From: Escherichia phage Pipis
Strand: one strand, 5' to 3'
Sequence record: PV714130
Length of the DNA: 40,625 nucleotides
Below the pieces are notes generated by a model. The model saw only the letters and a program-made list of their open reading frames with translations, made no database searches and was not told the DNA's origin. Positions within the stretch are counted from its first letter, which is position 1. Each line of letters starts with the position of its first letter. Below are positions 17,625-37,785 of the stretch, piece by piece. Position numbers and translations under genes: made by a program.

Positions 17625-18047
17625 ATGCTACCATATCTCAACTCACGCGAAGGTCGCCACATGTGCGCTTGTCGCCTCTGGGAAGACGGGCAGTCTAACT
17701 TCAAGTCATTTGAGGACTTCAAGGCTCATACTTACCGTATGGCTGACGAGTTCGACGGTGAAGAATACACAATATATGATGTCTCAGGTCAACCAGTAGC
17801 GTATCTCTACATGCTGGCTACCGCATCTTGGCACCGACCAACTCCCGGTCTTGACCTTTCAATCGTCGCTATTCGTCGTGACTCGCAGTCCTCCCGCAAG
17901 GTTCTTGAGACTGTCAGACACATCATAGACGAAGAGTGCAAGCGTTGGGGTCTTGGCTGGTATTCTCGTGTCAAGCATGTTTCAGGGTCGGTAGACATCG
18001 TAACAACCAAGTGCGTTAGCACGAACAAGGAGATTAACCGTGGGTAA
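17625..18047 (+). CDS. gene 7 position protein (virion/host-range protein family)
   Basis: 140 aa ORF between 6.7 and 7.3; assignment by synteny. Confidence 0.5.
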   Translation: MLPYLNSREGRHMCACRLWEDGQSNFKSFEDFKAHTYRMADEFDGEEYTIYDVSGQPVAYLYMLATASWHRPTPGLDLSIVAIRRDSQSSRKVLETVRHIIDEECKRWGLGWYSRVKHVSGSVDIVTTKCVSTNKEINRG

Positions 18048-18291
18048 ATCAATCAGTAAGGCTTTCAAGAAAGTGGTGAAAAGTACGTTAGGGACAGTGG
18101 GTCTTGGCTCTGACGAGGCGCCTAAGGTTGTTGAGGCTCCGACCCCAGCAGCAGCACCAGTGGAAGTACCGAACGACAAAGTGGAAGATGTGGATACTGA
18201 AGCAACAGCATCTGACGAGAAGAAAGCGAAGCGTGCAGGTAAGCGTAGTCTTCAGGTCTCTCGCACCTCTGGTGGCGGTATTTCTATATGA
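18040..18291 (+). CDS. 7.3: gene 7.3 homolog (tail-associated protein), GTG start
   Basis: MGKSISKAFKKVVKS ... KRSLQVSRTSGGGISI resembles recalled T7 gp7.3 (MGKKVKKAVKK ... SGGGINI); RBS AAGGAG 7 nt upstream of GTG. Confidence 0.8.
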   Translation: MGKSISKAFKKVVKSTLGTVGLGSDEAPKVVEAPTPAAAPVEVPNDKVEDVDTEATASDEKKAKRAGKRSLQVSRTSGGGISI

Positions 18292-18698
18292 CAGACTGCA
18301 TACTACATAAAGGCTGCGTTAATAATTCTGGGTATGGCCTGAAGTGGTATGCTGGTAAGCTGCGGGGAGCACACGTAGTGTCATATCTCAAGAACAAGGG
18401 ACCTATACCAGAAGGGCTAGTTGTGATGCACTCTTGTGACAACAGATTGTGCGTAAATCCAGAACACCTTAGTGTTGGGACCTACAGTGAGAACATGATA
18501 GACTGTGTTTCCAAGGGACGGAAGAACGCTCCGCATAGTGACAGCCACTACAACTCCAAGCTGAGCGCTGAAGAAGTTAAGTCTATACGCAAGTCAGGAC
18601 TAACGGCTACAGAGCTTACAGCCATGTATCCTGGAGTGTCTAGGAGAACGCTGTCTGACGTATTAACAGGTAAAACATGGAGGCACGTAGATGGCTGA
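18288..18698 (+). CDS. HNH homing-endonuclease-like protein (gene 7.7 position)
   Basis: GYGLKW...GPIPEGLVVMHSCDNRLCVNPEHLSVGTYSENM: HNH motif typical of free-standing phage homing endonucleases; paralogous to 29055..29504. Confidence 0.8.
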   Translation: MTDCILHKGCVNNSGYGLKWYAGKLRGAHVVSYLKNKGPIPEGLVVMHSCDNRLCVNPEHLSVGTYSENMIDCVSKGRKNAPHSDSHYNSKLSAEEVKSIRKSGLTATELTAMYPGVSRRTLSDVLTGKTWRHVDG

Positions 18699-20259
18699 AC
18701 GTGAAGGATTTGCTGCTGAAGGCGCGAAGGCAGTTTATGATAGATTGAAGAACGGAAGACAGCCATATGAGACACGCGCTCAGAACTGTGCTGCTGTCAC
18801 TATCCCGTCACTGTTTCCTAAGGAGTCTGACAACTCGTCTACGGAATACGTGACGCCGTGGCAAGCTGTAGGTGCTCGCTGCTTGAACAACTTGGCTGCA
18901 AAGCTGATGTTGGCGTTATTTCCCCAGTCACCGTGGATGCGACTGACAGTCTCCGAATATGAGGCCAAGACCTTGAGTCAGGACTCAGAGGCCGCTGCTC
19001 GTGTTGACGAAGGGCTTGCTATGGTCGAGCGTGTGTTGATGGCCTACATGGAGACTAACAGTTTCCGTGTGCCATTGTTCGAAGCTCTGAAGCAGCTTAT
19101 CGTCTCAGGTAACTGTCTGCTCTACATTCCAGAGCCTGAACAGGGAACCTACAGTCCTATGCGAATGTACCGCTTAGTGTCCTACGTTGTTCAACGTGAT
19201 GCTTTCGGTAACATCTTACAGATTGTGACTCTCGACAAGGTAGCGTTTAGTGCTCTACCGGAAGACGTGAAGTCTCAACTCAACGCAGACGACTATGAGC
19301 CTGACACAGAGCTTGAAGTGTATACGCACATCTACCGTCAGGATGACGAGTATCTGCGCTACGAGGAAGTGGAAGGCATTGAGGTGACAGGGACCGATGG
19401 TTCATATCCTCTGACTGCGTGTCCATACATCCCGGTACGAATGGTTCGACTGGATGGTGAAGACTACGGTCGTTCCTACTGCGAGGAGTATCTGGGAGAC
19501 CTGAACTCGCTGGAGACGATTACAGAAGCTATCACCAAAATGGCTAAGGTAGCCTCCAAGGTGGTGGGCCTCGTTAACCCGAACGGTATCACGCAACCTC
19601 GTCGTCTGAACAAGGCGGCTACAGGTGAGTTCGTTGCCGGTCGCGTTGAGGACATCAACTTCCTGCAACTGACTAAGGGTCAGGACTTTACGATTGCCAA
19701 GTCGGTGGCTGATGCTATCGAGCAACGTTTAGGCTGGGCCTTCCTTCTTAATAGTGCTGTTCAGCGTAATGCCGAGCGAGTCACTGCTGAAGAGATTCGT
19801 TATGTTGCTGGAGAACTGGAGGCGACCTTAGGTGGCGTGTACTCAGTACAATCCCAAGAGCTTCAGTTACCTATCGTCCGTGTGCTGATGAACCAACTTC
19901 AGTCTGCTGGCATGATTCCTGACCTTCCGAAAGAAGCGGTAGAGCCTACTGTCTCCACTGGTCTGGAAGCGTTAGGTCGTGGTCAGGACTTGGAGAAGCT
20001 AACTCAGGCGGTTAACATGATGACTGGTCTTCAGCCGCTATCTCAGGACCCGGACATCAACTTGCCGACCCTTAAGCTACGACTCCTGAACGCTCTGGGT
20101 ATCGACACCGCTGGCCTACTCCTGACGCAAGACGAGAAGATTCAGCGAATGGCTGAGCAGTCGTCTCAACAGGCAGTTGTCCAAGGTGCTAGTGCTGCTG
20201 GTGCTAACATGGGTGCTGCTGTAGGTCAGGGAGCTGGTGAGGACATGGCTCAAGCCTAA
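18691..20259 (+). CDS. 8: portal (head-tail connector) protein
   Basis: 522 aa; collinear with recalled T7 gp8 (YETRAQNCA, SLFPK, PWQAVGARCLNNLAAKLMLALFP, YRLVSYVVQRDAFGN, RMVRLDGEDYGRSY, RVTAEEIRYVA). Confidence 0.95.
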   Translation: MAEREGFAAEGAKAVYDRLKNGRQPYETRAQNCAAVTIPSLFPKESDNSSTEYVTPWQAVGARCLNNLAAKLMLALFPQSPWMRLTVSEYEAKTLSQDSEAAARVDEGLAMVERVLMAYMETNSFRVPLFEALKQLIVSGNCLLYIPEPEQGTYSPMRMYRLVSYVVQRDAFGNILQIVTLDKVAFSALPEDVKSQLNADDYEPDTELEVYTHIYRQDDEYLRYEEVEGIEVTGTDGSYPLTACPYIPVRMVRLDGEDYGRSYCEEYLGDLNSLETITEAITKMAKVASKVVGLVNPNGITQPRRLNKAATGEFVAGRVEDINFLQLTKGQDFTIAKSVADAIEQRLGWAFLLNSAVQRNAERVTAEEIRYVAGELEATLGGVYSVQSQELQLPIVRVLMNQLQSAGMIPDLPKEAVEPTVSTGLEALGRGQDLEKLTQAVNMMTGLQPLSQDPDINLPTLKLRLLNALGIDTAGLLLTQDEKIQRMAEQSSQQAVVQGASAAGANMGAAVGQGAGEDMAQA

Positions 20260-20277
20260 ACTATCACTATAGGAACA
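20255..20277 (+). promoter_or_regulatory. phage RNAP promoter (phi9-like)
   Basis: CCTAAACTATCACTATAGGAACA; predicted +1 at 20272. Confidence 0.65.
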
Positions 20278-20367
20278 ACACAACTTGAGTGAGTGAACGC
20301 ATAGCCAGCCGTAACGGGAGGGCAGGTTGTTGTGTTTCCTATTAACGACTTAAAGGAGAATGACTTA

Positions 20368-36776: not shown

Positions 36777-36974
36777 ATGATTGAGTTAGACTTCAAGAAT
36801 GAGGTCCTTAAAGCCTCTCCTATAGTCGGGACCGCTGCGGCTGATGGTGCCAGTCGGTTCTTCTTCGGGCTCACACTTAACGAATGGTTCTACGTTGCAG
36901 CTATCGCGTACACCGTTGTCCAGATTGGTGTGCTAGTCTACAAAACGATTAAAGGAGGAGGTGGTAAAACATGA
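36777..36974 (+). CDS. 17.5: holin (class II)
   Basis: 65 aa; PIVGTAAADGASRFFFGLTLNEWFYVAAIAYTVVQIG nearly identical to recalled T7 gp17.5. Confidence 0.88.
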   Translation: MIELDFKNEVLKASPIVGTAAADGASRFFFGLTLNEWFYVAAIAYTVVQIGVLVYKTIKGGGGKT

Positions 36975-37234
36975 CGCAGATGGACTTAGAGAAGTTCCTC
37001 TTGATGCTAGATACTGAACGTGCTCGACTCATGCTGCAAGACCTGCGGGATGACACTAAGCGTTCACCTCAGCTTTACAACGCCATTGAGAAGCTACTGG
37101 CTCGTCACAACTTCGTGCTAAGCAAGGTGTCTGTCGACGAGAAGACTCTGGCTGATATGGAGGCCCTGAACGCAGAGTACGATAAGGTGCTCTCGGCTAC
37201 GGAAGATAATGACACCGGGTATGGTGTTCAATAA
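36971..37234 (+). CDS. 18: terminase small subunit
   Basis: 87 aa; RSPQLYNAIEKLLARHNF matches recalled T7 gp18 (RSPQLYNAIKNLLDRHNF). Confidence 0.85.
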   Translation: MTQMDLEKFLLMLDTERARLMLQDLRDDTKRSPQLYNAIEKLLARHNFVLSKVSVDEKTLADMEALNAEYDKVLSATEDNDTGYGVQ

Positions 37235-37239
37235 GTGTT

Positions 37240-37281
37240 AGACTCAAGGTCATTACTATATGTAGTGGCCTTTATGGTTAA
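37240..37281 (+). promoter_or_regulatory. RNase III-type processing site (R18.5-like)
   Basis: AGACTCAAGGTCATTACTATATGTAGTGGCCTTTATGGTTA; third copy of the conserved element. Confidence 0.55.
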
Positions 37282-37335
37282 CACTAACTAGTGGAGGAGA
37301 CTCTACGTGAAATCTGATAAACCGGGAGGGCAACT

Positions 37336-37785
37336 ATGCTCGAATTTTTAAAGAGAGCGGCTCCGTGGTTACTTGCAGCAGTGATGTTTGCTGGTGGATA
37401 CCACACCGCTAACAATAAGTGGGAGGCTAAGGTCAATGAAGAATACACCTCGAATCTTAAGGCATCGGAAGATACAAGGCTTGCTGTCCAAGCTGAAGTC
37501 AACAAAGTGTCCAAACGGTTTCAGGACGAAATGTCCTCGCTGGAAGGCAGCACTGATAGGATTATTGCTGACCTTCAGTCTGACAATAAGCGGTTGCGCA
37601 TCCGAGTCAAACCAACGAGTGGAACCACGCAAAGTGACGGTCGATGCGTCATTGATGATTTCGCCGAACTTGACGAACGAGATGCTAAACGTCTTATCGC
37701 CATCGGACTGAAAGGGGACAAGTGGATTAAGGCCCTTCAGGACACTGTGAGAGCCTTGCAGCAAGATAAGGAGGTGACGCATTGA
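37336..37785 (+). CDS. 18.5: i-spanin (Rz-like)
   Basis: [15 protein letters not shown]-terminal TM segment and [25 protein letters not shown] as in recalled T7 gp18.5. Confidence 0.85.
37436..37711 (+). CDS. 18.7: o-spanin (Rz1-like lipoprotein) embedded in 18.5 in the +1 frame
   Basis: Embedded ORF with lipobox LTISGC after a hydrophobic stretch ([10 protein letters not shown]); RBS GGAGG 9 nt upstream of the ATG at 37436; ORF-track start 37388 is a TTG alternative. Confidence 0.55.
   Translation: MKNTPRILRHRKIQGLLSKLKSTKCPNGFRTKCPRWKAALIGLLLTFSLTISGCASESNQRVEPRKVTVDASLMISPNLTNEMLNVLSPSD

Follow-up and report, generated by a model that had tools for sequence, protein, structure and literature searches.

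Genes 7.3, 14, and 19 of Escherichia phage Pipis start with GTG, GTG, and TTG, respectively, and translation very probably begins at these codons by ordinary bacterial-type initiation, a lineage trait of T7-group phages that we consider the best explanation as a whole. The observation is real and ordinary, and it implies no new regulatory device or mechanism. The non-ATG starts are already known, in that most public records annotate them; the main value of the analysis lies in annotation, since it shows which start annotations are correct where public records disagree. The window, i.e., the whole stretch of DNA analyzed, comprises the 40,625 nucleotides of record PV714130 (one strand, 5' to 3') and can be assigned as a complete Kayfunavirus genome (K1F-like Studiervirinae, T7 group), with 95 to 97% nucleotide identity to many Kayfunavirus records and a gene order common to K1F and its relatives. 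A sequence-only reading had proposed the three starts at GTG 18040, GTG 26171, and TTG 37782. Inspection of the sequence and of the list of open reading frames (ORFs) confirmed all three codons, and the calls are well supported by the position of the Shine-Dalgarno (SD) sequences, the ORF limits, the homology to T7, and the conservation in relatives. The coordinates of the features are compiled in Table 1.

Table 1. Features at the non-ATG start sites of phage Pipis (positions in the window)
Feature	Coordinates	Strand	Details
54-aa ORF, GTG start	12384..12548	+	between genes 4 and 5; GGAGG 7 nt upstream
Gene 7 homologue	17625..18047	+	upstream overlap partner of gene 7.3; stop TAA 18045-18047
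SD AAGGAG of gene 7.3	18027..18032	+	7-nt spacer to start; duplex -8.5 kcal/mol
Gene 7.3, T7 virion assembly/host-range protein, 83 aa	18040..18291	+	GTG 18040-18042; Pfam VirionAssem_T7
Gene 13	25714..26187	+	upstream overlap partner of gene 14; stop TAG 26185-26187
SD AAGGAGGTGA of gene 14	26158..26167	+	-13.3 kcal/mol, 3rd of 51; GGAGG plus 6-nt spacer
Gene 14, internal virion protein gp14, 195 aa	26171..26758	+	GTG 26171-26173; Pfam T7_gp14
Gene 18.5, Rz-like i-spanin, 149 aa	37336..37785	+	stop TGA 37783-37785 shares TG with terminase TTG
SD AAGGAGGTGA of gene 19	37768..37777	+	within i-spanin coding sequence; -13.5 kcal/mol, strongest of 51; GGAGG plus 7-nt spacer
Gene 19, terminase large subunit, 587 aa	37782..39545	+	TTG 37782-37784; TTGA stop/start overlap

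Shine-Dalgarno sequences and start site context

Each of the three codons is the first ATG, GTG, or TTG past the in-frame stop of its ORF; this stop is a TGA two codons ahead of GTG 26171 and a TAA five codons ahead of TTG 37782. Complementarity to the 3' end of 16S rRNA was found upstream of all three starts, with spacers of 7, 6, and 7 nt past GGAG(G) for genes 7.3, 14, and 19, all within the range of 5 to 9 nt. The sequence-only reading had described the three SD sequences as strong and optimally spaced. The term strong applies to genes 14 and 19, which rank third and first among the 51 genes, and not to gene 7.3, which lies at the genome median (-8.7 kcal/mol). Among 1,241 other GTG and TTG triplets on the plus strand, 1.9% had an SD duplex energy of -8.5 kcal/mol or lower and 0.08% one of -13 kcal/mol or lower. 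As such background triplets seldom score as well, chance is excluded as the source of the SD placement. Downstream of all three SD-led codons, the reading frame is conserved as protein, and the alignment of the N termini of gp7.3, gp14, and gp19 with their T7 homologues, as initially claimed, was borne out.

At these sites, the 30S subunit would be positioned by the SD duplex, and the first codon read by initiator fMet-tRNA would be GUG in genes 7.3 and 14 and UUG in gene 19. All three starts lie within the 3' end of the preceding gene (overlaps of 8, 17, and 4 nt, respectively), and for this reason some of the ribosomes that initiate there have probably just terminated upstream (termination-reinitiation). 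An unusually strong SD probably compensates for the weaker start codon, so that the output would be moderate and not strongly lowered.

The context of the starts is otherwise inconspicuous. Overlaps with the upstream gene occur at 23 of 50 Pipis starts, and no enrichment at non-ATG over ATG starts was detected among them (Fisher P = 0.32). In 100-nt windows around the three Pipis starts, the T7 gene 19 start, and one Przondovirus start, hairpin stability did not exceed that of shuffled sequences (z = +0.1 to +0.8), and the unpaired probabilities were unremarkable. For the gene 19 mRNA, the minimum free energy was no better than that of shuffles (z = +0.74), and the SD and start codon together had a mean unpaired probability of 0.44, in the mid-range of the genome. 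A crude Salis-type thermodynamic score placed the three sites 28th to 34th of 50; this score is low in power, because the major capsid gene ranked only 21st.

Genes 7.3 and 14

The gene 7.3 frame is devoid of ATG (Met) codons. The protein aligns residue 1 to residue 1 with that of T7 (N terminus MGK...), and the N terminus predicted from GTG 18040 is (M)GKSISK. At this codon position, 20 distinct relatives have GTG, one Kayfunavirus locus (L116) has ATG, and another (L119) has TTG; GTG is the norm for this gene in Kayfunavirus, with single ATG and TTG variants. T7 gene 7.3, to which the Pipis gene is orthologous by its Pfam domain, starts with ATG and has no upstream overlap, whereas the Pipis gene combines GTG with the 8-nt overlap.

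For gene 14, the Pfam profile aligned from profile position 1, the protein begins with MC... in both Pipis and T7, and the N terminus predicted from GTG 26171 is (M)CEPTSIGMGIMAVAGATMSASQQAK. A gp14 homologue of 195 aa is present in PDB entry 9vvp. Among relatives, codons 2 to 8 vary almost only synonymously, AGY/TCN serine switches included. The start codon itself is ATG in 22 relatives, GTG in 2, and ATT in 2, and the GTG of Pipis is a rare variant of a start that is usually ATG. As for gene 7.3, the T7 orthologue (Pfam T7_gp14) differs by an ATG start and no upstream overlap, compared to GTG and 17 nt of overlap in Pipis. The only record that carries the exact gene 14 haplotype of Pipis is that of Providencia phage EPr2, and the 70-nt start haplotype had no match in IMG/VR. 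A sequencing error at GTG 26171 was rejected because the identical 70-nt haplotype is found in EPr2.

Annotation of the start sites in public records

The terminase TTG start is annotated in seven of nine records sampled. Other records place starts at later ATGs, namely at codon 12 in the K1F RefSeq terminase, at codon 16 in that of ZG49, and at Met9 in gene 14 of EPr2. Such calls agree with the alternative in which translation begins at in-frame ATGs farther downstream, at 37815 or 37827 in gene 19 and at 26195 in gene 14, and the GTG and TTG codons are no more than the last sense positions of untranslated leaders. We consider this highly improbable. In neither gene do the downstream ATGs have an SD (duplex energies between -2.0 and -2.5 kcal/mol), and the codons that precede these ATGs show purifying selection and homology to the T7 N termini. 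In the terminase, most changes in codons 2 to 18 are synonymous within a given clade, and the peptide (SNSQQAKNALIIAQLKG) shows homology with the N terminus of the T7 protein. Furthermore, some Kayfunavirus gene 14 alleles lack the ATG in question entirely, as do Przondovirus terminases, which have no in-frame ATG ahead of the conserved DF motif, and gene 7.3 offers no ATG at all. With initiation at GTG and TTG, the annotated terminases of K1F and ZG49 probably lack their first 11 and 15 codons, respectively, and the annotated gp14 of EPr2 probably lacks its first 8. The comparative argument used here is a simple way to correct these three starts.

The i-spanin/terminase junction

The ORF that precedes the terminase gene is identifiable as an Rz-like i-spanin of the T7 gp18.5 type. 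It shares 51% identity with T7 gp18.5 over residues 1 to 143 (full length), matches Pfam Phage_lysis with 23.4 bits, just below the cutoff of 25.4, and contains an embedded o-spanin frame with the lipobox LTISGC. In gene 19, two Pfam domains were detected (PF22530, at 6e-38, and PF03237), which together account for the terminase ATPase and the T7 RNase H-like nuclease. Its product is 65% identical to T7 gp19, for which solved structures are available (PDB 8dgc and 4bij), and matches 8dgc at E = 3e-246. The two proteins differ by one residue in length ahead of the conserved K(A/G)DF motif, and the N terminus predicted from TTG 37782 is (M)SKDLVAR.

In agreement with the sequence-only reading, the TTG is nested in the i-spanin stop (ATTGA, 37781-37785), and the two genes share TTGA (37782-37785). 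The TTG codon and the TTGA overlap are kept throughout Kayfunavirus and Przondovirus and are the conserved state in both genera: the overlap is conserved in 23 distinct loci, and IMG/VR loci yielded 27 distinct TTG/TTGA junctions. The TTG version of the 30-mer at the terminase start occurs in 34 phage records and the ATG version in none. This tally is based on exact 30-mer searches, as a degenerate pattern scan of IMG/VR was too unspecific and matched unrelated phages. The SD nucleotides of gene 19 are conserved while the C-terminal spanin peptide differs between genera. In Kayfunavirus phages (Peacock, LM33_P1, Vec13, and others) and in Przondovirus KpV766, TTG, SD, and 4-nt spanin overlap are identical to those of Pipis and already annotated; nothing of substance differs, and K1F and ZG49 deviate only by the annotators' choice of an ATG. 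In the orthologous T7 gene 19, a strong SD (AAGGAGG) likewise precedes a start other than ATG, but this start is a GTG that follows gene 18.5 after a gap of 21 nt.

The terminase is an enzyme, of which far fewer copies are required than of structural proteins. The sequence-only reading had concluded from the nested TTG that its translation is coupled and attenuated. The start codon calls of that reading stood, whereas coupled, attenuated translation was not established. In the strict form of this proposal, terminase levels are deliberately low, with a weak TTG fed mainly by ribosomes that terminate at the i-spanin stop, which we consider rather doubtful. The conserved TTGA overlap and the conserved SD within the spanin gene are consistent with it, as is the lower strength of UUG relative to AUG; initiation at GUG and UUG reaches 10 to 100% of the AUG level in E. 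coli reporters (10.1101/063800). The 4-nt overlap would also fit termination-reinitiation coupling as in the ATGA pairs of E. coli, in which stop and start share nucleotides and the SD is located within the upstream gene; four of five such pairs were coupled, with the SD as an aid to reinitiation, and one was uncoupled (Huber et al. 2019, PMC6728339). Pipis differs from these pairs in having TTG instead of ATG, and the local blocking structure proposed for them is not evident at its junction, where local structure able to block de novo initiation is absent. In addition, a maximal SD of 10 nt is unexpected at a purely attenuated site, and it could by itself recruit free 30S subunits. In T7 and its close relatives, 9 to 21 nt separate genes 18.5 and 19, and the start is still GTG; other relatives have ATG. 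A literature search retrieved no terminase expression data and nothing usable on measured T7 gp19 translation or N termini. Against coupling itself, the start site has no structure more stable than in shuffles, and overlaps are the genome-wide norm. The terminase SD, the strongest of the 51 genes, points to compensation and not to a weak site; compensation is as likely as attenuation. Non-ATG terminase starts carry stronger SDs than ATG ones (Mann-Whitney P = 0.018, for loci that are not phylogenetically independent).

It is also quite conceivable, if somewhat short of even, that the starts are real and have no regulatory meaning. Initiation would then be de novo, driven by the strong SD without dependence on upstream translation, and the start codon would drift nearly neutrally because the SD compensates. 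The start codons of genes 14 (ATG, GTG, or ATT) and 7.3 (GTG, ATG, or TTG) indeed vary among relatives, genes 19 and 14 have some of the strongest SDs in the genome, and sequestering structures are absent from the start sites. Overlaps at non-ATG starts are no more frequent than at ATG starts, and one of the five E. coli ATGA pairs is uncoupled (PMC6728339). Near-neutral drift is harder to reconcile with gene 19, in which TTG is invariant across two genera, with 27 distinct junctions and the ATG 30-mer absent, and T7 gene 19 avoids ATG as well. In one subclade, the last spanin codon is CCT, and a change from TTG to ATG would be silent for the spanin; TTG is retained regardless.

The retention of TTG in Kayfunavirus and Przondovirus, even where ATG is silent for the spanin, together with the GTG kept by T7, is also the basis for a further interpretation, in which the invariant TTG, the 10-nt SD, and the TTGA overlap form a selected device by which terminase production would follow i-spanin translation in a fixed, submaximal ratio. 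We regard such a device as unlikely. If it were real, the avoidance of ATG at the large terminase start would reflect conserved dosage control in Studiervirinae and not drift. The large terminase genes of the T7 group tend to avoid ATG and to pair a weak codon with the strongest SD of the genome, which hints at dosage tuning.

Other non-ATG starts in the genome

Non-ATG starts were found in 4 of the 51 Pipis genes (8%), as compared to 6 of 57 coding sequences in T7, where all six, gene 19 among them, are GTG. The fourth start in Pipis, absent from the sequence-only reading, is GTG 12384, which opens a 54-aa ORF and is likewise GTG in K1F and Peacock. An apparent non-start codon, GGT, at gene 6 was due to an alignment offset, and the true ATG is located one codon upstream, at 16029.

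Non-ATG start sites of genes 7.3, 14, and 19

Genes 7.3, 14, and 19 (large terminase) had been proposed in a sequence-only reading to start with non-ATG codons behind strong Shine-Dalgarno (SD) sequences, and the three codons are located exactly at the positions claimed (see table). Each is the earliest ATG, GTG, or TTG past an in-frame stop that precedes its open reading frame (ORF). All three are SD-led GUG/UUG initiation sites located at the ends of upstream genes. As also claimed, the terminase TTG is nested in the stop of the i-spanin gene, since in ATTGA (37781-37785) the TGA at 37783-37785 ends gene 18.5.

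Coordinates, start codons, and SD sequences of the features discussed
Feature	Coordinates	Start codon	SD sequence
Gene 7.3	18040..18291 (+)	GTG 18040	AAGGAG 18027-18032, 7-nt spacer
Gene 14	26171..26758 (+)	GTG 26171	AAGGAGGTGA 26158-26167
Gene 19 (large terminase)	37782..39545 (+)	TTG 37782	AAGGAGGTGA 37768-37777
Gene 18.5 (Rz-like i-spanin)	37336..37785 (+)		
o-spanin frame, embedded in gene 18.5	37388-37711		
54-aa ORF, between genes 4 and 5	12384-12548	GTG 12384	GGAGG, 7 nt upstream
HNH_3 ORF, between genes 7.3 and 8	18288-18698		
HNH_3 ORF, between genes 15 and 16	29055-29504		

SD pairing energies were computed against the 16S 3' end for the 51 gene starts in the window. Genes 19 (-13.5 kcal/mol) and 14 (-13.3 kcal/mol) ranked first and third, respectively, so that the SD sequence can be called strong in these two cases, but not for gene 7.3, whose -8.5 kcal/mol is close to the genome median of -8.7. 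Only 1.9% of the 1,241 other GTG/TTG triplets reach -8.5 and 0.08% reach -13, so that the co-occurrence of start codon and SD is not due to chance. The N termini coincide with those of phage T7 in alignments (MGK.. for gp7.3, MC.. for gp14), in agreement with the earlier claim, and gp19 differs in length by one residue. Pfam assigned gp7.3 to VirionAssem_T7, gp14 to T7_gp14 (aligned from profile position 1), and gp19 to terminase domains.

In-frame ATG codons and public annotations

Gene 7.3 encodes no methionine, and an ATG alternative is therefore absent. The in-frame ATGs at codon 9 of gene 14 and at codons 12 (37815) and 16 (37827) of gene 19 have negligible SD sequences (-2.0 to -2.5 kcal/mol). 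The spanin-overlapping TTG is already annotated as the terminase start in 7 of 9 public records sampled; the exceptions are the Kayfunavirus relatives K1F (RefSeq), annotated from the codon-12 ATG (L001 37030), and ZG49, annotated from the codon-16 ATG (37969). Because these ATGs lack an SD sequence, both terminases are probably annotated too short, by 11 and 15 residues, respectively. Similarly, gene 14 of Providencia phage EPr2 (L151 736-760) is annotated from Met9, which drops the conserved N terminus MCEPTSIG (window 26171-26195). These three calls look like an annotator preference for ATG and not real biology, and the evidence for the start calls made here exceeds that for some public annotations.

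The observation of non-ATG starts is thus correct, but the trait is known from T7-group phages and is annotated in them already. GTG starts account for 6 of the 57 coding sequences of T7, gene 19 among them, and non-ATG starts for 7 of 54 in the curated annotation of phage Peacock. In Escherichia coli, about 83% of start codons are AUG, 14% GUG, and 3% UUG (10.1101/063800). In the window, four of 51 genes have non-ATG starts, including the one with the GTG at 12384, which the sequence-only reading had overlooked.

Conservation of the start sites in relatives

Searches with three window segments revealed 95-97% nucleotide identity to many Escherichia Kayfunavirus (K1F-like, Studiervirinae) genomes. 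This identity, along with a gene order common to K1F, Peacock, and T7, indicates that the window represents an essentially complete T7-group coliphage genome.

GTG is the norm for gene 7.3 across 20 distinct Kayfunavirus sequences, and the identical codon is ATG in one locus (L116) and TTG in another (L119), a pattern that would be expected of a start codon and not of an internal valine. Gene 14 starts with ATG in 22 of 24 distinct relatives, and the spacer there is shorter (GGAGGACGT-ATG). The window haplotype, GGAGGTGAACC-GTG, is rare: it was absent from IMG/VR, and a full match was found only in EPr2, although GTG is also present in a more distant relative (L107). Variation in codons 2 to 8 is almost only synonymous, and a 195-aa gp14 homologue (PDB entry 9vvp) begins with MCEP.

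A different gene precedes gene 14 in ZG49-/Ro45lw-type Kayfunavirus (L088 and L103, both 1186-1203, homologous to window 26171). There, ATT occupies the position of the gene 14 start codon; GGGGGA or GGAGGA precedes it at a distance of 7 nt, and an in-frame TAG lies two codons earlier. These phages have either a rare ATT start or a start shifted to Met9. Substitutions are clustered just past the gene 14 start (window 26174-26200, CCAACTAGCATC, versus K1F 25831-25857, CCAGTAAGTATC), with the window sequence similar to the ZG49-type allele CCAATTAGCATT. The clustering hints at a recombination or homing hot spot at the gene 13/14 junction.

The ORF upstream of the terminase encodes an i-spanin, which shares 51% identity with T7 gp18.5, aligned from residue 1; the frame embedded in this ORF has the lipobox LTISGC. 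In the 80 IMG/VR loci fetched around terminase homologues, 27 distinct junction sequences share the TTG, the SD, and the TTGA overlap of the window; they fall into two clades, of which the second is Przondovirus (Klebsiella phages). In the latter, no in-frame ATG occurs from the TTG to the conserved DF motif, which leaves TTG as the only possible terminase start; the Przondovirus peptide SNSQQAKNALIIAQLKG is plainly homologous to T7 STQSNRNALVVAQLKG. Substitutions in codons 2 to 18 are mostly synonymous within each clade. T7 and close relatives, in contrast, start gene 19 with GTG after a gap of 9-21 nt behind gene 18.5, and further relatives in the sample start with ATG. The C-terminal spanin peptide differs between the clades (..KEVTH* versus ..KGGEH*), yet the SD nucleotides are retained, pointing to a constraint that acts on the RNA and not on the spanin protein. 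An exact search with a TTG-spanning 30-mer matched 34 phage records, and its ATG version none. One Kayfunavirus subclade has CCT as the last spanin codon, so that replacing TTG by ATG would leave the spanin protein unchanged; TTG is still kept.

Proposed coupling and attenuation of terminase translation

Coupled, attenuated translation of the terminase had also been proposed. Of five E. coli gene pairs with ATGA overlaps, four show termination-reinitiation coupling, and SD sequences aid reinitiation (PMC6728339). The 4-nt TTGA is the UUG analogue of these overlaps, which makes some coupling at the terminase plausible. Of 50 starts in the genome, 23 overlap the upstream gene, with no enrichment of non-ATG starts (p = 0.32). 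Start-site structures were in no case more stable than those of shuffled sequences (z = +0.1 to +0.8), and nothing obvious blocks free 30S subunits from reaching the 10-nt SD. The commonness of overlaps, the lack of stable structure, and a terminase SD that is the strongest in the genome argue against claiming more than plausible coupling.

Mean SD energies by terminase start were -12.9 for TTG, -11.7 for GTG, and -10.9 for ATG (p = 0.018 for TTG and GTG versus ATG, with loci that are not phylogenetically independent). Together with the rank of the terminase SD, this suggests that a strong SD compensates for the weak start codon. In reporters, GUG and UUG yield 10-100% of AUG (10.1101/063800). 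By a crude thermodynamic score of little discriminating power, the three sites ranked a little under the median. No expression or N-terminal data were found in the literature, and a net attenuation of the terminase is unproven. The only point of mild interest left is that the large-terminase start persistently avoids ATG and is paired with a maximal SD, which may reflect dosage tuning.

Other candidate starts and ORFs

The GTG of the 54-aa ORF is conserved and annotated as a start in Peacock; K1F has it too (12692), but its ORF is left unannotated. A Pfam search assigned the ORF product to no family. Annotations of gene 3 (endonuclease I) differ: the K1F ATG corresponds to window 8787 (SD -6.4 kcal/mol), and the Peacock GTG, 11 codons downstream, to window 8820 (SD -8.6 kcal/mol), a possible fifth non-ATG start. 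For the o-spanin, the Peacock curators chose a TTG (window 37481) with an SD of only -3.5 kcal/mol, and an upstream ATG in the window (37436) has a better one (-10.2 kcal/mol). Two ORFs encode HNH_3 homing endonucleases. One lies between genes 15 and 16 and has no counterpart in K1F and Peacock; the other, between genes 7.3 and 8, occurs only in a minority of relatives, with 7 of 217 records covering at least 80% of the segment.
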